A stretch of 64,000 nt of DNA from an uncultured Acidobacteriota bacterium. Its GTDB lineage: Bacteria; Acidobacteriota; Thermoanaerobaculia; Multivoradales; JAHEKO01. The position numbers and the translations under genes are program-made. Positions 5,279 to 36,510 of the stretch are shown in pieces (position 1 is the first letter of the stretch; the number at the start of each line of letters is the position of its first letter). The notes beneath the pieces were generated by a model. That model worked only from the letters and a program-made list of their open reading frames with translations, was not told the DNA's origin and ran no database searches. The stretch spans positions 1 to 64,000 of the forward strand of contig CAVQNG010000001.1 in NCBI GenBank assembly GCA_963713825.1, given 5' to 3'.

Positions 5279-6223
5279 CTAACCCGGAGTGGAATCGACC
5301 AAGGCCGATGTCGGTGGGATCCGGCCTGGCCGCAGAGCTGTGGAAGCAACTCTGTGAGCGGATTGTCTCGAGCGCTGGACGTGGGGCGGTGAAGGGCGGA
5401 GGTGCAGTCCGGTTTCAGTCTGGCTGACTCGGACAGCCGGATAGACTCGAATGACTCCCTCGAGTTGAGTGACAGCATTGCTTCGGAAGTCCCGCAGGCG
5501 GGCATAGGCGGATCCGAACTGCGCCTCTAGGCTCTTCCACGGAACCACAGTCGGTTTTCGCAGATAGCTCATCCTGTAGGTGAGCCAGACGTAAAGGTCG
5601 ATAGCGAGGGGCGATCTTTGAAGCTGACTGAATCGCTCGGAGATCGACGGGGACCGCGGAGCGCGTGATCTCTTCGAAGAAGCTCATGGGTCAATACGAT
5701 CTGCGAACGCCAGCTTGGTGGTCGTCGGGAACAGCTTTCGCGAATGGCTTCAGCCACGCAGGACCACCCGCAGTCACGAAGGCGGATCCAGAGGATCGTT
5801 GGAGCGAGGCCTACGGAGGTCTGCCAACTAAGCCGCATTGATAGGAGTCGGCGAAGCTGCTCATGAAGCCGCTGCGCGGTGCCTCGCGGTCCGCTGATGG
5901 TCGACAGTCCCAGCTTGCGAGCCAGGTCGTTGGGCGTTGCGCCGAGATGGATCCTCGGGTTCTTGGTCCGGACCGCTTCAGTCGTCAGCCAGGAGAGCAG
6001 AAGACGGGGATAGGAGCCGTAGGGTAGACCAATGCGTCCGAGGCGCGCTCAGTCGAAGGCGAATGACGACCATTGACCCGCTCGAACCGATGGCTCTCAG
6101 GCCGGCGATGGGGGAGGGTGGTGAGGACCAGGATCCGCGGCATGAAGCCGAGAGCACCGGCCGACAGGGCGTCTACGGACTCGACAGAGAAGAGGTCCTC
6201 TGCGAGGGCTCATGGGCAGCCAT
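5279..6223 (-). pseudogene. RepA-family plasmid replication initiator (RepA_C-like), multiply frameshifted; copy 1
   Basis: Fragments GFMPRILVLTTLPH, ITRSAVPVDLRAI and MSYLRKPTVVPWKSLEAQFGSAYARLRDFR match the intact copy at 35308-36165. Confidence 0.8.
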
Positions 6224-6225
6224 CA

Positions 6226-6599
6226 AGGACAGCACCTGACAACAGAGAGGTAACAATTTTGGTAACAATGAAGTACAACTGAAGGCCGTAATCGGCAGCA
6301 GACGACATTTACGCCTGTCGGCGTAAGTCGCTTGTTTTGTTGTGGTTGCGTGCTGTCGTCTGTTGTGGTTTGCGAGTTTTCAAAGGACTTAAAATCCTTC
6401 CTCCGCAAGGAGATGCGGGTTCGAATCCCGCCTCCGGCACCATCATAAACCTCTCAATTTAAGACACTTACGAGACTTGCGGAGTCTGAGGCAAGGTCGG
6501 TCGGGGCGTCGTTAGGGGCGAGAGGTAACAATTTTGGTAACAATGAACTACGACAGACGCCCGTAGTCGACAGCAGTTGGAGATTACGCCTGACGCCGT
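6226..6599 (+). mobile_element. att junction 1 (attP-like): left arm, tRNA-Leu 3' half, right arm
   Basis: GGTAACAATTTTGGTAACA at 6249-6267 and 6524-6542 flanks the tRNA fragment; the left arm is nearly identical to junctions 2 and 3. Confidence 0.82.
6385..6442 (+). pseudogene. 3' half of tRNA-Leu(TAA) (att core, not a complete tRNA)
   Basis: GGA-CTTAAAA-TCC anticodon arm, long variable arm CTCC-GCAA-GGAG, T-arm GCGGGTTCGAATCCCGC, ends GGCACCA; no D-arm or 5' acceptor strand upstream. Confidence 0.9.
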
Positions 6600-6619
6600 C
6601 TGGATGGCGCTCCTCAAAC

Positions 6620-7501
6620 TCACTCTGGAACCCTGCCGCGCTGCCGCGCTTCATCGAGGGCCGGCTCGATGAACTCGGCCAAGCGCTGAACTACCTCCTT
6701 GAGCTGAATCCCTTCGCCAAGGCCGCTATTCTTGAGAAAGGCACTCCACTCGGAGTCCTTGCTGCTCCAGAACTCCTGCTGGAAAGCGATCGGTAGGCCA
6801 TCGGGGAGGGGCGTCTTGCGCCGCTCGAAAGTCGCGGCGATCGCACTAGCCAACTGTGCACGATCGAAATCGAACTCCTTCGCGAGCATCCAAAGATCGT
6901 AAAAGTCCTTCATTCGAGTATTCGCGATGCCCAGAACGACCATCGCCTGGAACTTCTCGGCCACAACAGTCTCGGGAGGGTAGGCACGGAGCCTCGGAGC
7001 CGGAAGATCGAGGAGAGTCGGAAATGTGATCTCTGTGGGCTCGGGAGTCACGGCATCTCCGAACCCGATATCGACCTGGAGGGGAATACGGGTGGTGTGC
7101 ATCCGGCCCTCGAGGCGTACTCTGACACCCATGTACTCGCTGGGTTCCCGTATCTTGTGCACGCGGATACTCTCGGGTGGGAACTCGAGTCCGTCGGGCT
7201 CTACGTCGATCCGGCACACGTCGTCGAACAGTTCTCTAATGTGATCGGGGTTGCTGTCGCCACTACCTGCGAGGTCAAGGTCACGGGATGGGCGGTAGAC
7301 CTCTTCACTCCACACCGAGAACAGCATCGCTCCCTTAAGGAGGAATCGGTCGGCGTGGCGAGAACGGCTCAGCCGGTAGAGGAGGCGTTCGAGGCCGAAT
7401 CTGGTCAGCGTGAGCTGGAAGTCCTCGTCTCTGGCGCGAGCGAGGTTGAGCAGCCTCTGGCGGATGGATGCCGAGAGGTTCTTCACGCGGCGTCCGCTCA
7501 T
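6620..7501 (-). CDS. AbiEii-family nucleotidyltransferase toxin (type IV TA)
   Basis: LERLLYRL, FLLKGAML, RPSRDLDL, VDIGFGD, ETVVAEKF, NTRMKDFYD. Confidence 0.93.
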   Translation of the reverse strand: MSGRRVKNLSASIRQRLLNLARARDEDFQLTLTRFGLERLLYRLSRSRHADRFLLKGAMLFSVWSEEVYRPSRDLDLAGSGDSNPDHIRELFDDVCRIDVEPDGLEFPPESIRVHKIREPSEYMGVRVRLEGRMHTTRIPLQVDIGFGDAVTPEPTEITFPTLLDLPAPRLRAYPPETVVAEKFQAMVVLGIANTRMKDFYDLWMLAKEFDFDRAQLASAIAATFERRKTPLPDGLPIAFQQEFWSSKDSEWSAFLKNSGLGEGIQLKEVVQRLAEFIEPALDEARQRGRVPE

Positions 7502-8100
7502 GTCAGCGACTCCAGATAGGGGCGCATGACGTTGGCGACGCGGCAGACCTTGGCGTAGTGCCAGAGGTCATCCATCGAGCACTTACGCTCCCGCCAGCAG
7601 TCGCGAACCGCTTCGAGGGCCACGTCCAGGCCGATCTTGTTCCGGTACTTAAAGCAGTCCGCGACGGTCTTGGCAGGGCAGTAGATCCGGACGGCAGTTC
7701 CCTCGATCCGATGCTGTTCGACACCCTCCGTGAGAGCGTCTCCCGAGAACTTCACAACTCGCAGCGGCGGGCCGCCAGAAACGGGTTTCCAAGCTCGTCG
7801 ATCCACTGCCAGCCAAACCTCACGTGGGAGCTGCGTCGTTAGTTGATGGAACTGCAGGGCTGAAAGCAGACAGACCACGCCGTGGGGGACGAGGCGTGCG
7901 GCTTCCACCAGCGAGCGGTGTGCGCTGGGCTCGGCGTTGGGCAGCGTGTACAGCCCGCGGCCAACGCGCACCACAACGCCGTTCATTGTCAGTCTTCGCA
8001 GATACTCTCGTGAGACGCCAATCCGCTCGATGTCACGCGATCGGACAACCCCTCGTTGCCGGACGAACTCGACGACCTGCTCTACCTTGGTTGTGGCCAT
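7498..8100 (-). CDS. AbiEi-family antitoxin / transcriptional regulator
   Basis: RVGRGLY wHTH, GVVCLLSALQFH, YCPAKTVADCFKYRNKIGLDVALEA, VMRPYLE; coupled to abiEii. Confidence 0.93.
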   Translation of the reverse strand: MATTKVEQVVEFVRQRGVVRSRDIERIGVSREYLRRLTMNGVVVRVGRGLYTLPNAEPSAHRSLVEAARLVPHGVVCLLSALQFHQLTTQLPREVWLAVDRRAWKPVSGGPPLRVVKFSGDALTEGVEQHRIEGTAVRIYCPAKTVADCFKYRNKIGLDVALEAVRDCWRERKCSMDDLWHYAKVCRVANVMRPYLESLT

Positions 8101-8122
8101 GATCCCAAGCTCACGAGTTCTT

Positions 8123-8172
8123 AGTTGACAATACCTTGCCAAATTGTACTATGTGATTAGGTTTTGTCAACT
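8123..8172 (-). promoter_or_regulatory. sigma70 promoter of the AbiE operon with inverted-repeat operator
   Basis: Minus strand TTGACA(8170-8165)-16 nt-TACAAT(8148-8143); inverted repeat AGTTGACAATACCT (8123-8136) / AGGTTTTGTCAACT (8159-8172), 13 of 14 positions matching. Confidence 0.75.
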
Positions 8173-8239
8173 CGTTTCCGGAGTCAGATCCGGAAGTCGG
8201 ACTCGGCTCCACCAATTCCCTTCCCCTCTTACCTTTCCC

Positions 8240-9681
8240 TGTGCCTCCTCAATACTCGGCTGCCGATTGGGTCATCGCTGGAGGCTTGTTCTTGAGCGGA
8301 GGTCGGCCGCATCTCCGGCGCGAATACGTTCGCCAACGTTTTGAGGTGGTGAGCGATCCTCTCGTGCGGTGCAGCCGCGCTGGCGCTGGCCAAGGAAGGG
8401 CCCTCCTTCCTCGAGGCAGCCCGCGTAGGAGAATCCGAGCCGAGATCCGCGCGTTCAGGCGGCTTCGCGCCACTCGTACCGGTGGTGGAGTCCTCCGACA
8501 CGAGGCATCGCCACGACCTTGGCAGTCGGCGAGGGCTGTGGTGTCACGGGCCGGCCAGACGGAGTGTCCTTGCGGAGGCCGAGATGCGTCCGGTCGTCAT
8601 GGAAATAGTCGATGTAGGCCCGTGCCAGCCGCACGGCGTGGCGCTCGTTGAATAGGACAACGTGATCGAGGAGCTCACGGCGGCATCCGCCGATCCACCG
8701 TTCAGCCACAGGATTCTGCCAAGGGCTGCGATAGGAGATCCGGCGCGGCTCCGTGCCCATCGACTTGACGAACCCAACCACGGCCTTGCTGAAGATCGAG
8801 TCGCGGTCGAAGATGAGATGCCTCGGCGCAGTTTCGAAGGGGAAGGCTTCCCGCAGCTGCTGGATGACCCAGGCGGCGGTGGGGTTGAAGGTGGCGTTGA
8901 AGTGAAGGATTCGTCGATGCTCATGGTGGATGACGAACCAGCAGTACAGGACGCGCATCGAGGCGGTCGGGACCGTAAAGAAGTCCATGGCTGCGATGTG
9001 CTCCTTGTTGTTGCGCAGGAACGCCAGCCAGCGTTGGACGACATCGGGATTCGCAGGGCGTTGTGGCATGTACCGGGAGACGGTCGCCTCGGAGACGGTG
9101 AAGCCGAGCTTCTCCAGTTCACCGTGAATTCGCGGAGCTCCCCAATCGTTCTCGAGAGCCATTCTGTGGATCAACTCGCTGATCCTCCTGTCCACTCTCG
9201 GCCGCCCTGGGCCCCGCTGGTGTCGGGAGAGCTCAGTCCAGTAGCGTCGAAAACGCTCGCGATGCCACTTCACAACGGTCTCCGGCTTCACGATGACTAG
9301 GCGTTCGGCCCAGCCGCTCCACGCTCTCCTCATCGCCACCCAGAATGCGCGGTCGGCGTCATCGAGCTGCGGGCGAGGTCGCTTCTGCTTCAGCGCCTCG
9401 ACCTGCTGTTTCAAGGCGACGTTCTCGAGAACAACATCGGACTGCGCCCGAAGAGCCACTCGAAGCCCTCGGACAAGGAGAGTGATGAGCAGGAAGAGAA
9501 GTCTGGGCATGGCCGCGCAGGTTGACGGAATCCGTTGTCGGGCGCAATAGCCAGCCGCCAGGTCGGAATACTTGTGCCGCAAGGCGTTGAATCCCCGGGC
9601 GGATCCATTCTGAGGAGCGACAGGTCGAACCCCTGACCTCTTGAATGCCATTTCGTGTTACAGCTCGTGCGGTGAGGCACA
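8240..9681 (-). mobile_element. IS481/IS3-like insertion sequence
   Basis: TGT...ACA ends within the inverted repeat TCCCTGTGCCTC (8236-8247) / GAGGCACAGGGA (9674-9685), enclosing a DDE transposase; no clear target-site duplication. Confidence 0.6.
8455..9510 (-). CDS. DDE transposase (rve integrase core domain)
   Basis: WGAPRIHGEL, MDFFTV, LIFDRDSIF, SPWQNPVAER, GGLHHRY. Confidence 0.92.
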   Translation of the reverse strand: MPRLLFLLITLLVRGLRVALRAQSDVVLENVALKQQVEALKQKRPRPQLDDADRAFWVAMRRAWSGWAERLVIVKPETVVKWHRERFRRYWTELSRHQRGPGRPRVDRRISELIHRMALENDWGAPRIHGELEKLGFTVSEATVSRYMPQRPANPDVVQRWLAFLRNNKEHIAAMDFFTVPTASMRVLYCWFVIHHEHRRILHFNATFNPTAAWVIQQLREAFPFETAPRHLIFDRDSIFSKAVVGFVKSMGTEPRRISYRSPWQNPVAERWIGGCRRELLDHVVLFNERHAVRLARAYIDYFHDDRTHLGLRKDTPSGRPVTPQPSPTAKVVAMPRVGGLHHRYEWREAA

Positions 9682-9820
9682 GGGAGTTGGCTCGAGGTGG
9701 GAGGAGTCAGACGAAAACGGCAGTCTCTCGGATTCGCTTGTCCCGCTGAGTTCCTCTCAAACAGGCGAGTCTGGCTGAGTGGGTGAGCAGATGGTGAGCA
9801 GAGACTCGCGGGCACTAGGC

Positions 9821-12800
9821 TCAGAACGTCTGTCCGAGGCCGACATAGATCTTGTACTCGGGATCTCCATCTCGCCGGTCCAAAGGGAAGGCGAGGTCGA
9901 GACGCAGTGGCCCGATCGGCGAGTCGGCGCGAAGACCCGCACCCACCGATTTGAAGAGCATCGAGCCCACATCTTGGCGGGTGGCCCAGACGTTCCCTGC
10001 ATCGAAGAAGGCCACACCATTGATGATGCTCCAGATCGGGAATCGCAGCTCCTGGTTGGTGACGAACATGGCCTCTCCGCCCAGGGGAATGCCGTCCTCG
10101 CTGATGGGACCCAGACTGTTGGTGGGATAACCACGAACCGAGAATTCACCACCAGCGAAGAGCCGATCGAAGAAGGGTAGCTCCTCGTCGTCTCTCGCCT
10201 CTCTCAGACCAGTCCGGTAGTTGTGCACCCAGACCAGCGCGCTATCGCCCATCTTGACCAGCGGAATCTGGGGTTTCACTTGGCCAAACCAGCCGTATCC
10301 CGTGTAGTCACTGCCCAGATTCTCGCTGGCAAAGGAAAGATCGGACCCCAGAAAGACCGTTACTCGATCTGTCGAGGTCTCGAAGAAGCTCCTTTCCCCT
10401 GTGTCAAACGACACCTGCCAGCCGGAGTAGGGGCTGACGACCGTCTTCTCCCTAACCCCGGAATCGGTCGTGGTCTCTGTGACGCTCCTCTTGTAGACCG
10501 TGTAGAGCCGATGAATACTCCTCTTGCCCCAGGGAAAGGTGAGTTGAGCCCAGGCCTCCTGAGTGTCGGCAACAACACTGTCTTCGTCCGCGCCGTTCTC
10601 ATCCATCTCCTCGTCCGGTTCTGTCGTGCTAGTCACAGGTAGCTGCTCCTCACGACGGGTCTCGAGAAAGAACTCCAGGTTCTTGTTGGTCTGTCGAATC
10701 CGCGGTATCGACCAATAGAGCCGCGCGTTGCGTTCCAAGGTGGCGTAGATGAGCCGCAACCCGAGGGTCTGACCACGACCCAGGAAGTTCAGGTCTGAGA
10801 TGTCGGCCACAACTCCAGCCTCGCGCGTGGACTCGGCTCGCACACCGTAGGTCACTCGGTAGCGGGCGTGCTCCTCGAGCTCAATTGTGATGGGGGTGAG
10901 AACCGATCCGCTTTCTTGCTTGGAGGTCTCCTCACGCCGGATGGCGATTCGTTGGAAGATCCCGGTGCGGGCCAACCGGCGCCTGGCCTCGGTGATGCTG
11001 CTCGGACTGAGGAGCTCTCCCGGCTCGAGTTGGGACACCTCCTTGACCCAGGCCGGTGAAGACGCAGACAAGCCCTCGGTCTGAAGCTCACCGATCCTGT
11101 GTTCACGACCCACCTCGACCTCGTAGAAGAGATCGAACTCCCCAGTCTTGCCGCTGGCCGCCTCTTCGATTCGTGTCTGAACGGCAGCGCTGGCGAAACC
11201 CAACTCCCGAAGGTAGTCCTCCATCAGGAACGAGGTACGAGCGATCTGACCCACGCTGACGGGGTCTCCGGCCCGTAGCTCCCTGGTCTCGTCAAGGGCC
11301 TCCTGCAGCTCCGCATCGACACCCAGTATCCGCACTTGTGCCAGATGCCGCCGAGGCCCCGGATCGACTTTCACCTCGAGGACGAGTCCATCTTCAGAGA
11401 TCTCCCGAGACAAGATCTGGGCCTCCGAGTAGCCGACGGATCGCATGGACTGACGGAATAGCTGATCCGCCACCGGCTCGCCCACGGCCAACTCGACTCT
11501 AGAAAGCCTCGACGCAAACAAGCCCACAAGACCCGCCGCCACATCTCCCGGGACACCCAGGAACGCCAGATTCTGGGGATTCACCAGTCGGCCACCCTGA
11601 CTGTCGACTCGAATGACTCGATTGCCAGTCAGATTTCCTGACTCCTCGAGTTCCGTGGTCACTTGAACCTGCGGATCGAGGAATCCACGGGCCCTGAGAG
11701 CTCGAACCGTATCCCGCCTGATCGTCTCCAGGGCCGGTGAGTCCTCCATACCCGTTGGCTGGTAGAGGGCGATAATGTCCTTCCGAGCTCTCTTCTGGGG
11801 GCGTTCACCTGTGAATTCGAAGTCGACCCTCGGTCCCGGCTCGACGGCAATGCCGACTCTCACTCGGTTTCGAGGCGCAGGTTCCACTTCGACCAACACA
11901 TCCGCTGCTGGAAAACCCTTGCGAGCCATCGCATCCAACATATCGATCTCGATGTCGAAATCGTCGCTTTCGGCCACCGGCTGCCCTTTGCGCAGACCTG
12001 TTGCTCGCCTCACCCGTCGCTTGCCGACGCTCCCCTTCGGCGCCTCGAGATCGATCGCTTGCAGCCGCGGCAACCCATCCTCCGCGGACCGACCTCCACC
12101 GAACTCCAGCATCTGCTGGAGCGTCACCCCGTGATTCGCCTGATCGTTGCGGAAGATCTGTGCCCGCAGGCTCGGCGCAATGGCGAAGTTCTGCAGATTG
12201 ACGATGTCCGTACGACCTTCCGCCTCGCGTGGGTTCTGGGAGAGGACATACGAGATCTGAGGGGTAAGGTGATACGACATCGTGATCCGCGCCGTCGTAT
12301 CGGTCTCCCCCATCAGGGGCAGCGGTTGGACGCTCAGCTCCACGGTCGGCGAGCCGCCGGTAATGGACTGTAGAAAGCGGTTCTGGAAGTAGCTCGTCAG
12401 ACCGGTGGCAAATTCGTCGGCCTGGAAGGCGTTTGCACCGCTCTGTGGGTTGTACCGATCCCAGAAGCCACCTCCCGGACCCTTGTCTGCCGATGCCGTG
12501 CTCCAGACGCTGTCCCATTGACTCCGCAGACGGGGATCCTCCGACGAGGTGGTCGTCTCGAAGTCCATTCTCGGTGGTTCGCCAGAGACTCCCGAAAAGA
12601 CCAACGCACCCGAATCGATGCGGACGGTCTGTCCGTAGGCAGAGACCAATCCACCCGGATCGATATCGATGGTTCCTGCGATTGTCGGGTTGGCCAATGT
12701 GCCACGAACCCGTATCAGCTCCCAATCGGCTCGTAGATCGGCCAGATTGTTCTTGACCCGCACACCCTCCCTGGTGACCAAGTTGATATCCAGATCCGTG

Positions 12801-16282: not shown

Positions 16283-16389
16283 TCAATGGGGATCCCGAGC
16301 TCTTCGCCCAGCGTCTCCGCTTGAAGTAGGCAATCATATCCAGAGCGATCGCGATCATGACGGCCCGGATCGCGGGATCGCCCACCCCT

Positions 16390-17907: not shown

Positions 17908-17925
17908 AGAAGAGCTCCTCGCAGA

Positions 17926-24924: not shown

Positions 24925-24947
24925 CTTGGTCTCCTCTTCAGTTCAGA

Positions 24948-25205: not shown

Positions 25206-25247
25206 TGGACCTCCCCTCCCGGTTCTTCACTGTCGGGGCATCCGTCC

Positions 25248-26450: not shown

Positions 26451-26514
26451 GATTCCTCCTCCTCTTGCGATTCCGCCCGTCGTGTTCGACGACGGGTGGC
26501 TGGCTCATGCCCAC

Positions 26515-26584
26515 AGTGTGACTCGGGGCGTCACGCCGCGCATCCCACGAAACGTGGCAGAAATAGGGTAGGAACGAGGGGGAT
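26515..26584 (-). promoter_or_regulatory. Conserved activator-type promoter motif, copy 1
   Basis: Minus strand ATCCCCCTCGTTCCTACCCTATTTCTGCCACGTTTCGT-GGGAT-21 nt-CACACT, upstream of the patatin gene. Confidence 0.65.
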
Positions 26585-26610
26585 CAGGCTCTGGCCTGAC
26601 CTCGGGCGGG

Positions 26611-29382
26611 TCAGTCCGGAGGGTTGCGGTCGAGGACTCCAGCCGCCACGGCGCGCTCGACCGCCTCTCTTCGGCTGTGAGCCCCGAGCTTGGAGTAGAC
26701 CTGTTTGAGGTGACTGCTCACGGTCTGGGACGAGATCTTCAGGCGGGCCGCGATCTCCTTGTTCTGAAGGCGCAGGGCGAGCAGCTCCAGGACGTCCAGC
26801 TCGCGGTGGGTCAGGGCTTCAAGGGTCCCTCCAGCGACCGTGCGCCGCCCCTGGCGCTTCCCCGTCTGGGCGGGTTCGGCCTCGGCCGCGCGCACTGATC
26901 TGCCAGTGGGAGCACCAAAAGCGGTCACGAGGCGCTCGACCCGGGTAGCGAATTCACGCTCCTCGGGGAGCTGGTCGAGAAGGTCTACCATGGGAGTCCC
27001 CAGCTCGACGAAAGGAAGGACGATGTCGCCCTTCTGGGCCATTGTCACGGCCCGCCCGAGATTCTCGAGAGCTTCTTCCGTCTTATCCTGCCTTTCGTAT
27101 GCCGTGGCCAGAAGGGTCAGTACTCTGATCAGTTGGCAGATGTTGTGTTGGACCTCGACCACCTCGGCACACTCCAGCAGCAGCTCTTCCGCACTCGCGA
27201 GGGCGCCTGCCGACCCGACCGCCATCATTGCGCGGCATCGAGTGATCGACGGTATATCCAACCACCAGAGCAGTGCCCCTTCAGGCGGCGGCGCGGTCGC
27301 TCCGAGCCAGCGTATTGCGGCTTCCGATTGTCCCTGCAGGATGGCGAAACGCGCCTCCGCGGACACCGCCAGGCTGTCCATGGCGGGATCCCCGAGGGGA
27401 GCGACATATTCGCTGAGAGTCTCGAGCGCCGCCCGGGCCTCCTCCTCCCGCCCCAGCGCCTGATAGGCAAGCATCAGACCGGTCATCGAGTCGACCGCAG
27501 CCCGCGCGTGATGGATGAACCGGTTCGCGACGGATCGCCCCAGATGCTCGACCGCCGCTCTCCACTCACAGCGCTGCAGGTGAATCACCCCCTGCATATA
27601 GCCGGTCCATATCCGCACGTACGCCGCGGAGCCACGCTCGACGAGCGTCCACATTCTTCGGTTCGCCAACCCGGCGCCGAGCAGGTCACCGGCCACCACG
27701 TGAATGAACACGCGGGCGATCAGCAGCCGGGCCTCTCGCATCGCTTCGACCGACTCAGAATGCGCAAGCAGGTCGTCCAGGAAGCGGAGGCCCTCCTCCT
27801 TCCGGCCCACCATCTGCTTCGCCTGCGCGAAGACGAGTTCGGCATTGCTCCGGAAGTCCGCGTGCGACACGGGAATCTGCTCGAGACCGACGTCCAGGTG
27901 TTGCAGGCTTTCGGCTCCGTTCCCCATGAGCCAGAAGACGTACCCGCGACACACCGCGAGTTCGCCGCGTACCTGCTCGTCGCCGGATTTATCGCCGACC
28001 AGCGATTCGACTTCAGCCAGAAGCGGCGGCACGGCTTCGACTTGGTAGTAGTAGTTCAAGGCAATCCAGGCACGAGCCGTCAGAAGCTCTGCGTGCTGCT
28101 GCACGGTCCCTGTCGAGACGAGCTCAAGCCACCTATCGAGGACGTACCACTGGCTGTCATTGAGGGCTTCGTGTCGGTGCTGAATGACCAACCATACGGC
28201 CCGCCTCATGTCTTCGGCCGCCAGAGCGTGCTTGATCGCTTCGTCTATCAGGCCTTCCTCCTCGAAACACTGGCTGGCCCGCCGGTGGAGGGCCGCGACG
28301 TGATCCGGACCGCGCCGGCGCTCGAGCTCGCTCACGAGCAATTCCTGAAAGAGGTGGTGATACCGGAACCACTCGCGTCGGGCATCGAGAGACACCGTGA
28401 AGAGGTTGCTCCGGCGCAGCTCCTTCAGGAATTCGGCGGCTGTGAGTTCGGTCTGGTCGTCGGTGCTCGGCGGTTCACATACCGCGTCGAGTACCTCCAC
28501 GCAGAAACGATCGAGAATGGATGATGCCAGCATTCGGTCCCGAACCTCGGCGGTCTGCGCAGCCAGCACCTCTCGCAGCAAGTACTCCTGTATGTCCGTC
28601 AGGCGCCCGGGCAGTCTCTTTAGAAACGCATCGGCGTCGCGGACATGCCGCAGCGCCAACGACACGAGCCGCAATCCAACGGGCCACCCCTCCACCTCGC
28701 GCTCCAGGTGTGTCAGCGCCTCATCACTCACGGAGACGTCCGCTGTCGTGCTCAGAAACTCGCTCGTTTCGTGCCCCGTGAACTGGAGGTCCCGCAGGCG
28801 CACCTCGTTGATGTGGTGGGCGGCTCGCAGGCTCGGCAGGTCGAATGGCGGATCCTGGCGAGTGAGAACGACAAGGTGAAACTGGGCCGGGGGGTGATCG
28901 AGCATCCGGAGCATCAGATCGTGCACGGGCGACAGAGGGTCGATCCGGTGATAGTCGTCGAGCACGACGGAGCACGGCGCGTCCATCGCGTCGAGGTCGT
29001 TGAGCAGATAGCCGGCCAGGACCGGAACAGGAGCCAGCGAACCTGCTGCCAGGAGCTCTCGCGTGGCGTCACAAGAGCCGGGCGACACGGTATCCACGGC
29101 GGCAAGGAAGTACAGGAGGAATTCCCTCAGCCCGCTGTCACCGGCATCCAACGACAACCAGGCGATGGGGCTGTCGAGCTGCTCGACCCATTGGGCGACC
29201 AGCACACTCTTGCCGTAGCCGGCCGGGGCCGATACCAAGGTCAGCGGCACCTCGAGGGCCCTGTTCATCGTCGGGATCAGACGCTCCCGGTCGATCAGCT
29301 CTACGGTCAGCTGCGGCCGATACAGCTTGGTCCGCAGGATCGGTTCAAACGCCGGGGTGCTTTTGCCCGGATCGCTCTCCAT
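26611..29382 (-). CDS. MalT-like STAND ATPase / TPR / LuxR-HTH transcriptional regulator
   Basis: RTKLYRP, Walker [31 protein letters not shown]-terminal [22 protein letters not shown]...HLKQVYSKLG. Confidence 0.95.
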   Translation of the reverse strand: MESDPGKSTPAFEPILRTKLYRPQLTVELIDRERLIPTMNRALEVPLTLVSAPAGYGKSVLVAQWVEQLDSPIAWLSLDAGDSGLREFLLYFLAAVDTVSPGSCDATRELLAAGSLAPVPVLAGYLLNDLDAMDAPCSVVLDDYHRIDPLSPVHDLMLRMLDHPPAQFHLVVLTRQDPPFDLPSLRAAHHINEVRLRDLQFTGHETSEFLSTTADVSVSDEALTHLEREVEGWPVGLRLVSLALRHVRDADAFLKRLPGRLTDIQEYLLREVLAAQTAEVRDRMLASSILDRFCVEVLDAVCEPPSTDDQTELTAAEFLKELRRSNLFTVSLDARREWFRYHHLFQELLVSELERRRGPDHVAALHRRASQCFEEEGLIDEAIKHALAAEDMRRAVWLVIQHRHEALNDSQWYVLDRWLELVSTGTVQQHAELLTARAWIALNYYYQVEAVPPLLAEVESLVGDKSGDEQVRGELAVCRGYVFWLMGNGAESLQHLDVGLEQIPVSHADFRSNAELVFAQAKQMVGRKEEGLRFLDDLLAHSESVEAMREARLLIARVFIHVVAGDLLGAGLANRRMWTLVERGSAAYVRIWTGYMQGVIHLQRCEWRAAVEHLGRSVANRFIHHARAAVDSMTGLMLAYQALGREEEARAALETLSEYVAPLGDPAMDSLAVSAEARFAILQGQSEAAIRWLGATAPPPEGALLWWLDIPSITRCRAMMAVGSAGALASAEELLLECAEVVEVQHNICQLIRVLTLLATAYERQDKTEEALENLGRAVTMAQKGDIVLPFVELGTPMVDLLDQLPEEREFATRVERLVTAFGAPTGRSVRAAEAEPAQTGKRQGRRTVAGGTLEALTHRELDVLELLALRLQNKEIAARLKISSQTVSSHLKQVYSKLGAHSRREAVERAVAAGVLDRNPPD

Positions 29383-29763
29383 CTACTTAGAGCTCCCCTT
29401 CCGCTTCGCGATTCGATCTTGGGCCCACTGACTCGATTCCTCGGTGGTGGCGCTGCGCCGCGGCCGCTCGAAAGCCGGAGCTGGCCGACCTGGTGCTGCG
29501 AAGGTCCGATGATACCGTGCCCGAGAGGGCGCAACCGTGGCTCATGCCGAAACCGAGCTCACCCTAAGCAAGCCGGAGGGGGGTCGCTCCAGTGTGGGAG
29601 GGTGTGAAGGGGACGGCGAGCGTTAGCGAAGCTAACCCCTGACGTCATGAATGCCATTCAGTCGGTCATCTTCCCGTCGTAGGAGGATTTCCTGGGGTTC
29701 TCAATTGAGAAAGGGGTCGTCAATCGACAGCGAGATACGGTCGAGTGGACGCAGTGACTATCT

Positions 29764-30522
29764 CTAGGGTCGAAACTGAACGTGAGGTGGGGAAGGGTGG
29801 AGATACAGGCCATAGTCGGATCCGATCTGATCCTGCAGACCCTGCCATGGAACCAGTGTCGGTTTCTTGAGATAGCTCGTCCGGTAGGTGAGCCAGACGT
29901 AGAGGTCGACCGCGAGGGGAGATCTCCGCAGCTGACCGATCGCTCGCAGGTCGACGGGGACCGCGGAACGCGTGATCTCCGCGAAGAAGTGCTGGCCCAG
30001 GAGTACATGTGATCGCCATGTCGGTCGTATTGCGAACAGTCGTCGTAACGGGTTGAGCTCCCAAGCCGCACCCGCAGTCACGCACGCAGTGCCAGCCGAT
30101 CGCGGAGCGAGGTCCAAAGAGGTCTTCCACTCGAGCCGCATTGATAGCAGCCGGCAAAGCTGCTCCTGAAGCCGAGGCGCGGTGCCCCGGGGACCACTGA
30201 TCACCGACAGCCCTAACTTGCGAGCCAGATCGTTGGGTGTGGCGCCGAGCTGGATCTCCGGGCTCTTGGTGCGGACGGCTTGGGTGGTGAAGTAGGCGAG
30301 CAGCAGTCGAGGGTAGGAGCCGTAGGGTAGGCCAACGCGTCGAGGCGCGCTCATCCCCACGGAATGGCGACCGTTGACGCGCTCGAACCGATGGCTGTCA
30401 GGTCTGCTGTGGGGAAGGGTAGTGAGTACGAAGAGCCGCGGCATGAAGCCGAGGGTTCCTGCTGTGAGGACGTCCTCGGACTCCAGAGACAGGAGGTTCT
30501 CCGCTCGAGTCAGGTGGGCCAT
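29764..30522 (-). CDS. RepA-family replication initiator, copy 2 (about 33-aa C-terminal internal deletion)
   Basis: TLPHS, GLPYGSYPRLLL, ITRSAVPVDLRAI, SPLAVDLYVWLTYR; lacks the SRRRDFRRK...QTDTS segment present in copy 3. Confidence 0.82.
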   Translation of the reverse strand: MAHLTRAENLLSLESEDVLTAGTLGFMPRLFVLTTLPHSRPDSHRFERVNGRHSVGMSAPRRVGLPYGSYPRLLLAYFTTQAVRTKSPEIQLGATPNDLARKLGLSVISGPRGTAPRLQEQLCRLLSMRLEWKTSLDLAPRSAGTACVTAGAAWELNPLRRLFAIRPTWRSHVLLGQHFFAEITRSAVPVDLRAIGQLRRSPLAVDLYVWLTYRTSYLKKPTLVPWQGLQDQIGSDYGLYLHPSPPHVQFRP

Positions 30523-30524: not shown

Positions 30525-30870
30525 ACGACAGCACCTGACAACACAGAGGTAACAATTTTGGTAACAATGAAGTACAACTGAAAGCCGTAGTCCACAGCAG
30601 ACGGCATTTACGCCTGTCGGCGTAAGTCGCTTGTTTTGTTGCGGTTGTGTGCTGTCATCAGTTGTGGAGTGTGAGTTTTCAAAGGACTTAAAATCCTCCC
30701 TCCGCAAGGAGTTGCGGGTTCGAATCCCGCCTCCGGCACCACCTTAACCTCAACAGAAGACAAGACTTACGACTTTTCAGGTGCTTCCCTTCGGACCGCT
30801 TTCCAGGTCGGAGGTAACAATTTTGGTAACACTGAACCCCATAAGACGACCGCAGTCGACAGCAGTGTGC
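30525..30870 (+). mobile_element. att junction 2 (attP-like)
   Basis: 19-mer at 30548-30566 and 30813-30831 flanks the tRNA-Leu half. Confidence 0.82.
30684..30741 (+). pseudogene. 3' half of tRNA-Leu(TAA) (att core)
   Basis: GGACTTAAAATCC...CTCCGCAAGGAG..GCGGGTTCGAATCCCGCCTCCGGCACCA. Confidence 0.9.
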
Positions 30871-31043: not shown

Positions 31044-32138
31044 CTAGTTCCCCAGCTGCTCTTCAAGAGCCAGTGTGGACGCATCGAACATTTCCTCGAA
31101 TCCTATTTGGCTCTTTACAAGACCCTGCTCGAATACATACCTCATAATGGACTCCAACTCCTTTCGGTTGGCCTCCACTCCGTACTTCCAATAGTTCGTG
31201 CCCATGAGACCACGTGTGCTTTCAAACTCGTCAGAAGCCCAGGGCAAGGTGACTCTGTTGACCGTTGTGCTCTGCAAGTTCTTATAGGCCAGATCCTTCG
31301 CCTCGGAGTACATTTCAAACACCGCTTTCGCCAACCAGGGATTTTCGGACAGGGCGTCCTTCCGGATGGCGATGACATGCATGATCGGGAACATTCCGGT
31401 CTTGGAGAAATACGCCTGCTCGGTCTCTTTGACGTTTGGAAAAAGCCGTCGGATCCTCGGGTCACCCTCTAAATACGCCTTTGGCGTGATGGCGGTGATG
31501 AGGGCGTCACACTGCCCGCTCAGGAGCAATTCCGATTCGTCGACCCCTTCCGGGCCTCTCGTAATTGGAAAATCGTCGGCAAAGTAGTAATTGGCGAAGC
31601 CCGAGTTCAGCGCCCCTCCATCCGAGCTCTTCGTGGTTTCGATCCACTGCAGATCCTCGGCCTTGACGCCATATTCATCGAGGAGGAAACCCCGTATCCA
31701 GGTATGGGAGCTCATTCCGTATCCGGGCGTGCCGACCCTTTTCCCGACGAGGTCTTCCGGCGTCTCGATTCCGGAGTCAACATGAACAAAGACATTCTTG
31801 TGCCTGAACTCTCTCGAAACAAATACCGGAATCAAGGAATAGCCACGGAAATCCTCGTTGATATATCTCGTGATGTAGGGAATCAATCCGAGTTCCGTCA
31901 CCTCATATTTCTGTTCAGATCCGAAGGCCAACCGATTCAAGGTGTAGATATTCGAGACCTCGAAATTCACATCAGCTTCTGCGATGGATACATGACCGTC
32001 CATGATGGCTCGTGTCCGGTCATAGTCGTATCCGGCAATGTTGAGGGAGAGAGTCTCTTCCTGTTGACCCGAATTGCATCCGGCAATCAGGAATAGAGCA
32101 GCGGCAATCGTGACACCGGTTTGAATCCGTACGCTCAT
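31044..32138 (-). CDS. Periplasmic-binding-protein-fold lipoprotein, 4,5-dihydroxyphthalate decarboxylase-like
   Basis: Lipobox IAGC, YDRTRAIMDG, IPVFVSREFRH, GKRVGTPGY, FPIMHVIAIR, YGVEANRK. Confidence 0.78.
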   Translation of the reverse strand: MSVRIQTGVTIAAALFLIAGCNSGQQEETLSLNIAGYDYDRTRAIMDGHVSIAEADVNFEVSNIYTLNRLAFGSEQKYEVTELGLIPYITRYINEDFRGYSLIPVFVSREFRHKNVFVHVDSGIETPEDLVGKRVGTPGYGMSSHTWIRGFLLDEYGVKAEDLQWIETTKSSDGGALNSGFANYYFADDFPITRGPEGVDESELLLSGQCDALITAITPKAYLEGDPRIRRLFPNVKETEQAYFSKTGMFPIMHVIAIRKDALSENPWLAKAVFEMYSEAKDLAYKNLQSTTVNRVTLPWASDEFESTRGLMGTNYWKYGVEANRKELESIMRYVFEQGLVKSQIGFEEMFDASTLALEEQLGN

Positions 32139-32209
32139 TTGTTGATCCTGTTCTGGTCTTCAGTTCTCACTACTCCAGCCCTGAAGAGCTCTCGAGTGAG
32201 CATGCCTGA

Positions 32210-33889
32210 TTACTCGGCAGCCTTTCGAGCCGCGTAAAAATACTCCAGCAAAGCCTCAGTCTCCGGCCGGAGATTGGCGATGCCTTCATAGGGTTTGCCG
32301 TGTGTCTCCTCACGATCCGGGAACCTCTTCTTCAGTGCCTCGTGACGCTGACGCATGTCGTCGAAGTACGCGACCGACCACATGCCCGTCGCCAACAAAG
32401 GCTTTGTTTCCTTGAGGTCTCGATACAGATCGAATACCGGTAGCGCGAAGCCGGGCGATCCCGGCGCTGGCCAGTGTGCCTTGAACTGCTCCTTGATTGT
32501 GGCCTGCAGATGAGCACCCTCGTAAGCGAACAAGTAGTCGCGACGGCCATATCCATCACCATTCAAAAGCAGCGATGTCTGATTCAATCCGTCGACGACA
32601 CGGTCCCGGGGAATGTACTGATCCGCCTGTGCAATGACCGCAAGCGTCGTGTACCAGTCAGTGGCATGGACGATGTCTCCGACAAAGGTATCGGCTGGTA
32701 TGACATCCGGCCAGCGGACATAGGCGTTCACCCTGATCCCCCCTTCCAAAGTGTCTCCCTTGAAGCCACGGAAGACCATTTGGGAATAGCCGGATTCAGG
32801 CATGGCCTGGAACATGGGGCCGTTGTCGCTCATGACAACGACCACAGTGTTGTCTTCAACGCCGGTTTTTTGCAGCGCCGCAAACAGATCACCAAGGTGA
32901 TCATCGAGGTCTTTCATGCTCTCGACCCATGTGCCACCGTTGGCGGTTACGAATGTTCTGTTTCTGCGGGTAAAATTCACCGGAATCTGTGGCCAATAAT
33001 TGAGAAAGAAGGGCTCATCCTCGGCCGCCAGCTGATTCAGCTTCTCAATCACCTGCGTTTTATAACGCTCGTTCAGAGCGTCATAGTAGGCATAATCCAG
33101 TGGTTTTCCAGCTTCTGCACCCCATTCGTGCGCTTCCTCGCCGGCAACGGCATCAACACCCAACACCCAACCTGAAGGCCGGAAGTTCTTGTCCAAGCGA
33201 TAGTTGGGTATTGTTTCGCGCACCGCAACATTGTCTGCAAGGCGATCATCTTCCGACTCGGGGGTCATGAAGTTGAAGGTCGCCTGGTTGTGAAGGGGGA
33301 AGCTGGCAGTATCAAAACCCTGGTTGTGGGGCATAGCCTGCTCAATATCGCCCTGGTGCCACTTGCCGATGTGTGCGGTGTTGTAGCCAGCCTTTTTCAG
33401 AATCTCGGCAAGGGTGACTTCATCCTTATTAAGCCCCGTTCCTTCCGGCGGCACGATTTTCGGCTCCAGCATGTGACTGCGCACGGGCAGACGTCCGGTC
33501 AAGAGGGCGGTGCGGGTGGGCGTGCAGGTGGGTTCTGAGTACATGCGGGAGAACGTTAGGCTTTCCCGGGCGAAAGAATTGATGTTCGGGGTCGTATAGC
33601 CGCGGACATGGTTCAGCACGGGGTCACCCATCTCGCCGAATCCCACGTCGTCGATCAGCACAAAGAGAATACTGGGGCGCTTTCCGCCGTTGGCATCGCG
33701 CACTTCTTCAAGCTTTTCTGCAATCGCCTCGTCTTCCTGCGCCCATCTGTCACCGTGCTGCGCCAACAGCATGTAGTGTTCCGCATCGTGCTGGATGGGT
33801 TCTTGTGCCTGAACTCTATTTGCTGGGGTCAACAGAAGGAGCCCCAAGACTGCTCCTGTAACCAAAGATCCGGATCTTTGCTTCAACAT
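32210..33889 (-). CDS. Exported arylsulfatase (Cys-type)
   Basis: AAAGGAG RBS, signal peptide, LIDDVG, CTPTRTALLTGR, GKWHQG, SDNGP. Confidence 0.92.
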   Translation of the reverse strand: MLKQRSGSLVTGAVLGLLLLTPANRVQAQEPIQHDAEHYMLLAQHGDRWAQEDEAIAEKLEEVRDANGGKRPSILFVLIDDVGFGEMGDPVLNHVRGYTTPNINSFARESLTFSRMYSEPTCTPTRTALLTGRLPVRSHMLEPKIVPPEGTGLNKDEVTLAEILKKAGYNTAHIGKWHQGDIEQAMPHNQGFDTASFPLHNQATFNFMTPESEDDRLADNVAVRETIPNYRLDKNFRPSGWVLGVDAVAGEEAHEWGAEAGKPLDYAYYDALNERYKTQVIEKLNQLAAEDEPFFLNYWPQIPVNFTRRNRTFVTANGGTWVESMKDLDDHLGDLFAALQKTGVEDNTVVVVMSDNGPMFQAMPESGYSQMVFRGFKGDTLEGGIRVNAYVRWPDVIPADTFVGDIVHATDWYTTLAVIAQADQYIPRDRVVDGLNQTSLLLNGDGYGRRDYLFAYEGAHLQATIKEQFKAHWPAPGSPGFALPVFDLYRDLKETKPLLATGMWSVAYFDDMRQRHEALKKRFPDREETHGKPYEGIANLRPETEALLEYFYAARKAAE

Positions 33890-34093
33890 AGCTATTCTCC
33901 TTTCGGAATCTGACTGTCGTTTCTTCATATCGAATCTTTGGGAGTTACCCTCACCTCTGGGTTCTCTCATATGATCGAACTTCCGACCTCGTCGAGGGTG
34001 ATTCAACTCGTGTTATACCGTTTTCTAAGGCAGGGCGACATCAAAAAGTTGCACGGGTCGATTCTTGGATGGAGCCGACGGTGAATCTTAGCC

Positions 34094-35098
34094 GTGGTAG
34101 AGAAGTACAAGGTGGAAATGAGCCCCGGAACATCAAACCGTAACGCGACGATTCACGCCGCGCACCAGGACTGCGACAGCCTGGAAGACTTCGCAGACGC
34201 CACCAGTGGATGGGAGCTCGATTGGCAGCAACTGGATCGGGGGCCGTTCAAGGCGAGAGTACTGCAGGTCGAGACGCCGTCAACCTTGGTGAGTCAGTTC
34301 CGGGTCAACCGAAAGTTTCACCAGCGGGGCGTGAGCCCTCCCGGGATGCGGACATTCGGAATTGTCGGTGTTCATTCATCCCCGGTGGAGTGGAAGGGCC
34401 GCGAGTGGTCGAAGAATCAGATCGAGGTCTTTCCCACATCTGATCTCTACGAATCCTTGTCACACCCAGGATTCCGAGGCGACGGGTTGTCGATCCCGGA
34501 GGACCGAATCCGGTCGACGGCCAAGACGCTTGGTCTTCCAGATCCTCTCGAGCGCTTGCCCGCAGGGTCTTGTTTCGTCGAGTCGGATCCTAGTCGGATG
34601 GAAGCACTTCGACGAAGCCTGGACCAGTTGTATTCAGCAGTTTCGACCCAGGGCGATGTCACGCTCGATGAGGCGGCATGCTCCGAGATAGAGTTCGAGA
34701 TCCACTCTGCGCTCGTATCTGTTCTCGGGTCGGGTCTCAATACCGATGTTCACTCCCCACCTGCGACCGTTCGATCCAGAGCATTGCGGCTGGCTCTGGA
34801 TTACATCGAAGCCAGGGCCGACGCTGCGCCGAACATTAAAGACATTTGCCTCGCTTCGGGCGTGAGCTATCGGACCCTCAATTACGCCTTTCTCGAGCAT
34901 TTTGGGGTCGCGCCCAAGCAGTACCTCCAAGCGGCGCGTCTTGACGGCGTGCGCAAGGATCTCCGAAAGCTCAGACCGCATTTCGCCATCATCGACGCGG
35001 CCAACCGCTGGGGCTTCTGGCACATGGGCCAGTTTGCGGCGGATTACCGTCGCCATTTTGGCGAGTTGCCGTCGGAAACGCGCGATCGTGTGAAGTAG
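34094..35098 (+). CDS. AraC-family regulator (EutR-like), divergent from the sulfatase
   Basis: WQQLDRGPF N-domain; SYRTLNYAF...PKQYL...ANRWGFWHMGQFAADYRRHFGELPSET. Confidence 0.92.
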   Translation: MVEKYKVEMSPGTSNRNATIHAAHQDCDSLEDFADATSGWELDWQQLDRGPFKARVLQVETPSTLVSQFRVNRKFHQRGVSPPGMRTFGIVGVHSSPVEWKGREWSKNQIEVFPTSDLYESLSHPGFRGDGLSIPEDRIRSTAKTLGLPDPLERLPAGSCFVESDPSRMEALRRSLDQLYSAVSTQGDVTLDEAACSEIEFEIHSALVSVLGSGLNTDVHSPPATVRSRALRLALDYIEARADAAPNIKDICLASGVSYRTLNYAFLEHFGVAPKQYLQAARLDGVRKDLRKLRPHFAIIDAANRWGFWHMGQFAADYRRHFGELPSETRDRVK

Positions 35099-35307
35099 AT
35101 CATACGCTCCGAGATGTTTGCTTGATGTTTGCACGAGCCCTAAGTCGAGCCGAGGATTTGCGAGCTTGGAGTCGGCTGGTCCGGGGCGTCGGCTTCGGGC
35201 TGACGCGATTAGAGATCCGCCGCGACAGCATCATCCCTCGAGCGCGACCCGTTGATCGGGAAGGAGCCGTCCGCTCCTCAGCGAGTTGCGGGAAATGGGT
35301 TCCAGGA

Positions 35308-36165
35308 CTATCTGTGCGGTCGGGCCTGAACGTGGGGTGGGGAGGGGTAAAGCTGGAGGCTGGTGTCAGTCTGGGCAATGCGGACAGCCGGGTAGATGCG
35401 AAGGACATCTGTGAGGTGAGTCAGGGCCTTGCGCCGGAAGTCTCGCCGGCGGGAATAGTCGGCTCCGAACTGGGCCTCGAGACTCTCCCAGGGAATCGAC
35501 GTCGGCTTTCTTAGATAGCTCATCCGGTAGGTAAGCCACACGTAGAGGTCGATTGCCAGGGGTGAGCCGCGCAAGCGGCGGATCGCTCGCAGATCCACGG
35601 GGACCGCGGAACGGGTGATCTCCCGGAAGAAGTGACGGTCGAGAACCACCCTGGGATCCCAAGTCGATCGACGCAGGAGAAGGCTTGAGGCGAGTGCTTG
35701 CAAGGACGGATTGGATGTGGATACGAAGCGTTGACTTCGGGCCCCGGTGCAAGTGTCCTCATATGATCGCCAACTCCATCGTGTCGATAGGAGCCGGCGG
35801 AGCTGATCCTCCAGTCGACGTGCGGTGCCACGCGGTCCGCTGATCGTCGACAGACCCAGCTTTCGTGCTAAGTCATTGGGCGTAGCGCCGGGATGAATCT
35901 CGGGGTTCTTGGTTCGAACCGCTTCAGTGGTCAGGTAGACGAGAAGCAGCCGCGGATAAGAGCCGTAGGGTAGGCCGACACGCCGAGGTGCCCGCAGTCG
36001 GAGCGTGTGGCGACCGTTCACCCGCTTGAACCGGTGGCTCTGTGGCCGGCGATGGGGGAGGGTGGTGAGGACCAGGAGGCGCGGCATGAAGCCGAGTGCA
36101 CCCGCGGTCAGGGCGTCCTCGGACTCCAGAGACGAGAGATTCTCCGCTGGGCTCACGAGAGCCAT
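35308..36165 (-). CDS. RepA-family replication initiator, copy 3 (apparently intact, 285 aa)
   Basis: GFMPRLLVLTTLPH, GLPYGSYPRLLLVYLTTEAVRT, SPLAIDLYVWLTYR, QFGADY, LYPSPPHV, resembling IncW-type RepA_C. Confidence 0.85.
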   Translation of the reverse strand: MALVSPAENLSSLESEDALTAGALGFMPRLLVLTTLPHRRPQSHRFKRVNGRHTLRLRAPRRVGLPYGSYPRLLLVYLTTEAVRTKNPEIHPGATPNDLARKLGLSTISGPRGTARRLEDQLRRLLSTRWSWRSYEDTCTGARSQRFVSTSNPSLQALASSLLLRRSTWDPRVVLDRHFFREITRSAVPVDLRAIRRLRGSPLAIDLYVWLTYRMSYLRKPTSIPWESLEAQFGADYSRRRDFRRKALTHLTDVLRIYPAVRIAQTDTSLQLYPSPPHVQARPHR

Positions 36166-36167
36166 CA

Positions 36168-36510
36168 ACGACAGCACCTGACAACAGAGAGGTAACAATT
36201 TTGGTAACAATGAAGGACAACAGATGCCCGTAATCGACAGCAGACGGCAATTACGCCTGTCGGCGTAAGTCGCGTGTTTTGTTGCGGTTGCGTGCTGTCA
36301 TCTGTTGTGGAGTGTGAGTTTTCAAAGGACTTAAAATCCCCCAGCCGAAAGGCTATCCGGGTTCAAATCCCGGCTCCGGCACCAAGTTAACTTACACAAA
36401 TAGATGGACTTACGGAGCTTCGGGATATCTTCGTCCGGGCGCTCTTTGGGGCAGTGGTAACAATTTTGGTAACACTGAACCACAACAGATGGCCGCAGTC
36501 GACAGCAGGG
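36168..36510 (+). mobile_element. att junction 3 (attP-like)
   Basis: 19-mer at 36191-36209 and 36456-36474 flanks the tRNA-Leu half. Confidence 0.82.
36327..36384 (+). pseudogene. 3' half of tRNA-Leu(TAA), divergent allele (att core)
   Basis: GGACTTAAAATCC, variable arm AGCC-GAAA-GGCT, T-arm CCGGGTTCAAATCCCGG, CTCCGGCACCA. Confidence 0.9.

Follow-up and report, generated by a model that had tools for sequence, protein, structure and literature searches.

A tandem array of integrase-less, RepA-bearing elements behind tRNA-Leu(TAA) in an uncultured acidobacterium, probably moved by an integrase in trans

Positions 5279-36510 of the DNA analysed here, a window of 64,000 nucleotides at the start of contig C1 in the genome of an uncultured sediment acidobacterium of the Thermoanaerobaculia (C1:1-64000), are built on a module that occurs three times and consists of repA, encoding a replication initiator of predicted plasmid type, a left arm, the 3' half of a tRNA-Leu(TAA) gene and a right arm. 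The stretch is part of the first 36 kb of an array of at least 77 kb with at least five elements. Probably these are non-autonomous integrative elements similar to cis-mobilizable elements (CIMEs), equipped with a replicase of their own, stacked behind tRNA-Leu(TAA) and moved by an integrase acting in trans.

The array and its attP-like junctions

The genome is a 96%-complete metagenome-assembled genome (MAG) of 38 contigs, and position 1 of the window coincides with a contig end. As the initial annotation had reported, direct-repeat families place the tRNA part of the three modules (J1 to J3) at 6385, 30684 and 36327, with start-to-start spacings of 24299 and 5643 bp. Each module comprises a minus-strand repA, a left arm of 159 nt, a 58-nt stretch and a right arm. 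Compared with copy 1, the 58-nt tRNA part shows 79-97% and the left arm (6226-6384) 89-92% identity, the right arms are 77-86% identical between copies over 56-80 nt, and whole modules differ by 8-27% (73-92% identity). The search for more junctions, recommended earlier, was successful beyond the window: J4 was found at C1:65456 and a truncated J5 at C1:76804-76956, the left arm of which stops exactly at AAGGACT with unrelated DNA beyond, and a sixth module, J6, at C3:669424-669763 on another contig. All units, ranging from 2.6 to 29 kb, stand in tandem in the order right arm, cargo, repA, left arm. Their sole gene in common is repA (RepA_C, PF04796), in line with the earlier claim, to be corrected in that copy 1 is a frameshifted pseudogene and copy 2 carries a premature stop.

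J6 (G000:C3:669424-670717 = L026:14425-15718) is a lone attP-like module; its repA is intact and shares 89% identity with copy 3, and no tRNA-Leu gene was found nearby. The same locus also holds non-coding repeats of ~120-200 nt (L026:1515-1710 and 4826-5115, corresponding to G000:C3:656514-656709 and 659825-660114), of which dozens of copies are present in all five genomes of the genus.

It could be suspected that modules of several organisms were stitched into one contig by assembly or binning, as the 38 contigs come from a metagenome, the assemblies of relatives are interrupted at these modules, and a contig in the MAG of another species matches a 9-kb element on C35 with 99.93% identity. 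Such an artefact is scarcely credible, however: module copies which differ by 8-27% are not collapsed repeats, arrays with at least two junctions occur in independent assemblies (L090, L106, L108 and G033:C6), and parts of the stretch are present in Logan contigs of public runs from 7 studies. Three joints in Logan contigs (30741->36187, 30745 back to 30546 and 29913->35580) were discarded as untrustworthy, their sides of 23-31 letters lying within the repeated modules; they neither support nor contradict circles or excision.

ARAGORN detected no intact tRNA within the 64-kb window. The genome's only intact tRNA-Leu(TAA) is located on another contig, at C34:150874-150960 on the plus strand, 5 kb from the contig end, and a right arm with the motif described below follows it in the predicted orientation. 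An intact tRNA-Leu(TAA) had been expected to the left of position 1; gene, orientation and right arm agree with this expectation, while the linkage of C34 to position 1 of C1 is inferred. The 58-mers align with the 3' part of this gene, from the anticodon stem-loop through CCA, and in an alignment of six junctions with the intact tRNA a 13-nt identity block, GGACTTAAAATCC, begins in the anticodon stem, exactly where the tRNA part had been said to start.

Thirty distinct halves were aligned, about five rows being intact tRNAs and the remainder junction halves, and their tRNA identity extends from the anticodon-loop crossover to the 3' end, as in the attP sites of integrases that target tRNA genes. 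Pairing is complete (100%) in the variable-arm helix, where all 4 pairs show compensatory changes, and reaches 98.7% in the T stem, where 10/30 halves have GC swapped to CG. Overall, 91% of cells are paired versus 78% in shuffles (0/500 shuffles as high), and pairing falls to 30-58% when partners are slid. Such structured and diverse halves fit elements that, each time they integrate, give a functional tRNA their 3' half; in-place decay of copies of a single gene does not fit them.

Both arms carry an invariant 19-nt tandem 9-mer motif, GGTAACAATTTTGGTAACA, set symmetrically about the anticodon-loop crossover, ~136 nt left and 129-139 nt right of the start of the tRNA part. Its 12 genome copies (11 exact, one with one mismatch) share a single orientation and are confined to the junctions, including J6, and the intact tRNA, with two per full junction, one at J5, one behind the intact tRNA and none elsewhere in the genome. 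Outside this genome, the motif was present in 6/45 family genomes and in 4/401 class-sampled genomes, all four within the family; a reversed-pattern control yielded 0 matches in the former set and one (G041) in the latter. Conservation across 25 distinct right arms (this genome, its relatives and metagenomes) is 0.98 in the motif columns and 0.64-0.85 in the flanks; some 55 nt beyond the motif it drops to ~0.5, at a boundary common to all 25 junctions. Analogous tandem pairs precede int in relatives that possess an integrase, and the invariant 9-mers on both arms are most likely the arm-type sites of the integrase acting in trans, a prediction made from sequence. The junctions, each composed of left arm, tRNA 3' half and right arm, are attP-like, as had been proposed, and would have arisen as elements inserted one after another, site-specifically, at the anticodon loop of a single tRNA gene.

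Two viral contigs from IMG/VR with 35-36% GC (L181:3960-4000 and L182:13790-13830) contain GGTAACA three times, spaced 10-12 bp apart, and with it an exact copy of the 19-nt motif; an integrase-like gene stands ~700 nt away in L181, and L182 gave no integrase match. Neither contig is related to this family.

Relatives with integrase and the loss of int

In three relatives, G016, G007 and G030, an integrase stands at the same tRNA-Leu(TAA), and a tandem pair of 8-12-mers, different in sequence in each, lies 62-65 nt past the tRNA end and ~25-50 nt before the start of int. On the near-complete chromosome of G016 the tRNA gene is followed by 65 nt, ATCCGCAC-TAT-ATCCGCAC and a 380-aa integrase; 48.6 kb of cargo separate these from the distal end, where a repA (47% identical) is followed by that motif again and by a tRNA half. 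The pairs at the same distance before int in G007 and G030 are TTGTGGGTGCAA x2 and TGGGTACATT x2. With the arms of G007 and G030 the right arm is colinear, a GACTTACG box, the tandem pair and a GTCGAC box being common to them, and its conservation in the window ends where the int ATG stands in these two genomes. The cargo of G016, of which 10 of ~35 open reading frames (ORFs) were scanned, comprises an HTH_17-ATPase, an ABC system, kinases and a UvrD plus OLD-TOPRIM pair; no synteny of the array flanks with G016 was found.

It is mainly because arm conservation stops at the relatives' int ATG that we infer the int ORF to have been removed once, not many times. The elements would descend from the int...repA island family that is intact in the relatives, and after a single loss of the int ORF, from its start codon, the integrase-less lineage would have spread, being integrated and probably also excised and reshuffled by the tyrosine integrase of that clade in trans.

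A census of 79 metagenome loci encoding a RepA relative, most of them on short contigs, revealed the motif (at most one mismatch) in 29, 17 of which show both copies around a tRNA-Leu half; L090, L106 and L108 have two junctions on one contig. With three integrase queries tblastn, although not exhaustive, detected no integrase in the 29 motif-bearing loci, and only 2/79 loci were matched at all, both motif-free. Likewise, none of 10 ORFs adjoining right arms in 8 loci is an integrase according to Pfam; they belong to MalT-LuxR regulator, PLD, VWD, DUF481, subtilase, DUF3604, AbiEii and MscS families, and one is without Pfam match.

Unit content and order vary between genomes, as comparison of the assembled sequences indicates and as the initial annotation had anticipated. 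In G003:C101, a J1-type right arm and AbiEii/AbiEi genes (89%) stand directly beside a repA resembling copy 2 (84%), an arrangement equal to unit b minus the 21.6 kb at 8143-29760, the rve gene being at the left margin of the absent block. In G033:C6, an MNT gene and a repA remnant like those at 4910-5416 (87%) adjoin a J4-type right arm (92%), and in G004:C27 a DUF1214 gene 97% identical to 61461-63013 is followed by a repA only 70-74% identical. For the cargo of unit c no substantial match was found in five relatives, though the modules match. Across three genera and numerous metagenome contigs, the cargo between the same integrase-less ends is not constant.

The presence of intact, int-bearing relatives at the same tRNA would also suit a graveyard of eroded islands, in which each unit came with its own integrase, deleted later and independently, and nothing moved without its own int. 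This history, which would agree with an insertion sequence within unit b, a repA broken in three of six copies, a genome without cognate integrase and the usual origin of CIMEs as far as it is treated in a review of integrative and mobilizable elements (IMEs; PMC5704250), is nevertheless unlikely. Had int been deleted independently, ragged ends and pieces of int should remain; none was found, and the 25 distinct right arms all end their conservation at the int start. Moreover, the same integrase-less ends surround different cargo across genera and metagenomes, and the tRNA halves are diverse, structurally intact alleles.

Elements moved by an integrase in trans have furthermore to be compared with a process that dispenses with integrases: RepA plasmids carrying the 1.2-kb module of repA, arm and tRNA half could integrate into the tRNA gene or a resident module by homologous (Campbell-type) recombination, for which the modules offer several hundred bases of homology. 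That RepA belongs to a true plasmid initiator family and that no integrase was found would be expected under this process, yet we regard it as quite improbable, given that all copies have their tRNA homology starting precisely at the anticodon stem-loop, the point where J5 breaks as well, that a module identity of 73-92% is poor for RecA, that elements with an integrase have P' arms colinear with these arms, and that a plasmid has no evident reason to possess a structured tRNA 3' half unless it restores the gene after site-specific insertion.

RepA, candidate helpers and cargo

RepA_C (PF04796) is matched by copies 2, 3 and 4 with 76-91 bits (curated cut-off 26); copies 3, 4 and 6 are intact, and copy 5 is a 168-nt stump. 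A sequence-only search of the PDB with RepA gave no match. An AlphaFold (AF2) model built on 26 sequences reached a pLDDT of 80.4 and a pTM of 0.81, and its top folds in Foldseek were RctB domains 2-3, RepE54 and pPS10 Rep-DNA complexes (5tbf, 7uv6, 8ac8 and 1rep; probability 1.0, TM 0.42-0.58, E from 4e-5) and, more weakly, Pi (2nra; probability 0.96, TM 0.39-0.43). By its Pfam match and this model, RepA is predicted to be an iteron-type plasmid initiator with two winged helices, of the RepE/Pi/RctB type. RepA was also considered as the recombinase itself and was rejected on account of its iteron-initiator fold.

More than 2800 proteins match RepA at E <= 1e-5, and genes annotated RepA in 1092 plasmid records do so with ~40-42% identity. 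The best 120 matches are at least 58% identical and come mostly from short metagenome contigs, several on one contig; the only circular contig found was L148, a distant RepA_C plasmid. Copies 2, 3 and 4 share 58% identity. In a tree of 17 rows, restricted to matches covering at least 200 residues, the array copies are not sisters: copy 2 pairs with a G003 copy and copy 3 with the J6 copy (support 100/99 each), and copy 4 falls outside the clade that includes copies of G003, G004 and G033. RepA, as an iteron-type initiator like the Rep of SGI1, may keep the excised circle alive. In a farther-reaching form of the explanation, possible but doubtful to us, the elements would be a long-lived satellite lineage of integrative plasmids that discarded int once and since then diverged, their RepA proteins being as little as 58% identical, while passing between sediment genera of the Thermoanaerobaculia; for insertion, excision and the shuffling of units they would borrow a helper's tRNA-Leu integrase, and their own RepA would replicate the excised circle. 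In a still bolder version, the four 9-mers flanking the crossover would be the RepA origin, split and silenced by integration and rebuilt by excision.

Whole-genome profile searches with PF00589 and PF00239 found no match on contig C1, the five tyrosine-recombinase matches and the single resolvase match all being on other contigs. In Pfam searches, the large ORFs of the array proved to be cargo, with no genes for integration, excision or transfer (families of relaxases and of type IV secretion systems, T4SS, were not profile-searched genome-wide). The earlier statement that the complete units encode no tyrosine or serine recombinase was upheld by these searches and needs only the correction that unit b does contain a DDE (rve) transposase (Table 1). 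Decayed integrase remnants, proposed as a check, were not found in any array unit. The integrase suspected to the left of position 1 did not appear in the 5 kb of C34 behind the intact tRNA, which hold a Usp protein and a LysR fragment, and none predicted to target tRNA-Leu(TAA) was found in the 96%-complete assembly.

Two integrases elsewhere in the genome were considered as helpers. Int on C35 (448 aa, with an Arm-DNA-bind_3 domain) is preceded by GGTTACCACTATGGTTACCAC, that is GGTTACCAC-TAT-GGTTACCAC, in an element that also encodes RepA_C, a DnaB-like helicase and an RHS protein; its homologues are located at tRNA-Glu(TTC), tRNA-Arg and tRNA-Gly. Int on C25, 48-49% identical to the G016 integrase, lies in an island of 12 kb that occupies tRNA-Lys(CTT) and is bounded by a 228-nt repeat of its own. 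Both were rejected as poor candidates for the cognate enzyme, so that the array probably does not move in this genome today.

Both elements deserve a remark of their own. The 9-kb int and RepA_C element G000:C35:324-9388 is 99.93% identical to G003:C173:1-9066 in the MAG of another species, by either very recent transfer or binning of the same contig twice. In the C25 island (G000:C25:512027-524487) the direct repeats, 99% identical, span most of tRNA-Lys(CTT), and the integrase faces the 5' side of that gene.

Besides the failure of both candidate helpers, several observations weigh against elements with their own replicase and an integrase in trans. No integrase adjoining the GGTAACAAT motif was found in 45 family genomes, 401 class genomes, 79 metagenome loci or the two viral contigs. 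Damage to repA in three of six copies (1, 2 and 5) resembles that in decaying islands. An iteron array of at least three repeats was found neither near repA nor anywhere in the window, only 2+2 copies of the 9-mer, and this absence counts against replication; plasmid relatives of RepA have 3 x 22 bp iterons. Tandem 8-9-mers also precede repA in distant RepA_C loci (C11, Amphibiibacter and a Patescibacteria contig), where no integrase was found at hand, and for this reason the motif could be a RepA operator rather than an integrase site. J5 is without the expected terminal tRNA half, and J6 is flanked on one side by genus-conserved genes (80-85%) and on the other by variable DNA. Finally, the genome is a MAG, its contig ends show no overlaps by which C34, C1 and C35 could be linked, and the join between C34 and C1 is unassembled.

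The cargo differs from unit to unit (Table 1) and further includes HepT/MNT toxin-antitoxin pairs, amidohydrolases and OmpR-like regulators. In unit b, a single ORF of 2153 aa (9821-16282, minus strand) unites DUF748/TamB-like, POTRA and Omp85 parts that are normally two proteins, TamB and TamA. The DUF1254/DUF1214 genes of unit d are found at 46878-48479, 53883-55535, 55553-57172, 57117-58793, 58836-60338 and 61332-62909, and another at 23371-24924 in unit b; four of these paralogues follow each other head to tail at ~1.6-kb spacing and are 60-80% alike at the DNA level. A C/T-rich element of 45 nt has five intergenic copies in unit d (39448-39492, 40604-40648, 46744-46788, 53529-53573 and 62916-62960; 73-84% alike) and may represent a shared promoter or operator in this MalT-LuxR-headed unit.

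Table 1. Features of the window and its continuation on contig C1.
Feature	Position	Strand	Evidence or remark
Unit a, right-hand part, cut by contig end	1..5278	.	Pfam
Unit a cargo: AbiEii/AbiEi-like genes	460-2308		Pfam
Unit a cargo: MNT-type nucleotidyltransferase	4949-5254		Pfam
repA copy 1, pseudogene broken across several frames	5279..6239	-	ORF list; tblastn pieces in different frames; partial PF04796, 34 bits
Left arm (P-arm-like) of J1	6226..6384	+	Motif GGTAACAATTTTGGTAACA at 6249-6267
tRNA-Leu(TAA) 3' half of J1, anticodon stem-loop to CCA	6385..6442	+	
Right arm (P'-arm-like) of J1	6443..6620	+	Motif at 6524-6542
Unit b cargo	6620..29760	-	Pfam: AbiEii/AbiEi toxin-antitoxin pair, rve transposase, TamB-POTRA-Omp85 fusion, two MscS, O/P porin, phosphodiesterase, alpha/beta hydrolase, DUF1254/DUF1214, patatin, MalT-LuxR regulator
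Unit b DDE (rve) transposase	8455-9651		Pfam
repA copy 2 (RepA_C), premature stop near C terminus	29761..30522	-	
Left arm of J2	30527..30683	+	Motif at 30548
tRNA-Leu(TAA) 3' half of J2	30684..30741	+	
Right arm of J2	30742..30866	+	Motif at 30813
Unit c cargo	31044..35098	.	Pfam: NMT1-like binding protein, sulfatase, AraC regulator
repA copy 3, intact, 285 aa, iteron-type initiator fold (predicted)	35311..36165	-	
Left arm of J3	36170..36326	+	Motif at 36191
tRNA-Leu(TAA) 3' half of J3, divergent allele	36327..36384	+	Compensatory T-stem and variable-arm changes
Right arm of J3	36385..36508	+	Motif at 36456
Unit d cargo	36637..64000, on past window to repA copy 4	.	MalT-LuxR regulator, hydrolases, MscS, sulfatase
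Unit d: six DUF1254/DUF1214 paralogues	within 36637..64000		Pfam, repeats
repA copy 4	C1:64458-65294		Intact

Comparison with known systems

Pavlovic 2004 and Bellanger 2011 are reportedly cited in the IME review for CIMEs and tandem accretion. As far as that review covers them, CIMEs and tandem accretion are already in print for the ICESt1/ICESt3 family of Streptococcus thermophilus (PMC5704250), and its CIMEs resemble the units of the array in lacking integration or transfer genes, in keeping both att sites, in standing in tandem at the 3' end of a target gene and in being movable, in principle, by the integrase of a neighbouring or incoming element. The units possess the flanking att sites of an integrative family (arms plus tRNA half, the right arm colinear with the P' arm) and no integrase of their own, as IMEs or integrative and conjugative elements (ICEs) have. 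A cognate integrase beside the attP site was absent here and in the J-type loci examined and was found in G016, G007 and G030. In contrast to CIMEs, the integrase-less state here looks inherited by a whole lineage, with one boundary at the int start in 25 junctions and three genera, the units each keep a plasmid-type replication initiator, no helper ICE or IME was seen in the array, and the host is an acidobacterium.

Tandem islands at tRNA and tmRNA genes arise through tyrosine integrases, with crossover in the anticodon loop, a duplicated 3' part of the tRNA at each end and arm-type repeats on both sides. Here as there, the tRNA would receive its new 3' half from the element; the array departs from these islands in that none of its units has an integrase and all of them end distally in a replicase gene.

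For SGI1, a chromosomal island that likewise carries an initiator of the RepA_C family, the account given in PMC7433901 states that Rep (S003) and an iteron oriV are required for replication of the excised island, which according to the same account has its own int and xis, four 17-bp iterons beside rep, mobilization genes, trmE as target and a dependence on AcaCD of IncC. The array agrees with RepA_C systems in profile and predicted fold; it lacks the iteron array (oriV), int and xis, no mobilization gene was seen in Pfam searches of its large ORFs (the genome-wide limit given above applies), and its target is a tRNA.

The initial annotation had called the platform integron-like, which is apt as analogy only. 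As in integrons, recombinase-less gene units gather in one orientation at one site. Unlike integrons, with IntI, attI and promoterless cassettes bounded by attC, the array has no IntI, attI, Pc promoter or folded attC site; its sites are tRNA-type attP regions of ~300 bp, double-stranded, with arm repeats and a tRNA half inside, and its units are multi-gene, 2.6-29 kb long, with their own regulators and toxin-antitoxin pairs. A published description of this element family was not found in a few term-based literature searches, which did not cover supplements.

Stacked islands at tRNA genes are commonly regarded as the remains of dead elements. A different view is favoured here by the common arm boundary, the invariant motif, the structured tRNA halves and the shuffling between genera: a lineage without integrase, equipped with its own replicase, would long have been mobile. 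If this is true, the lineage would be a parasite of the integrases of other elements and a route by which sediment Acidobacteriota gather envelope, hydrolase, regulator and toxin-antitoxin genes; under the satellite reading, the tRNA-Leu locus would be an open-ended gene-collecting platform. A concrete pair for testing is given by a J-type attP and an integrase of the G030/G007 type. Measured against the systems above, the array is a recognisable variant of a known route by which bacteria collect foreign genes.

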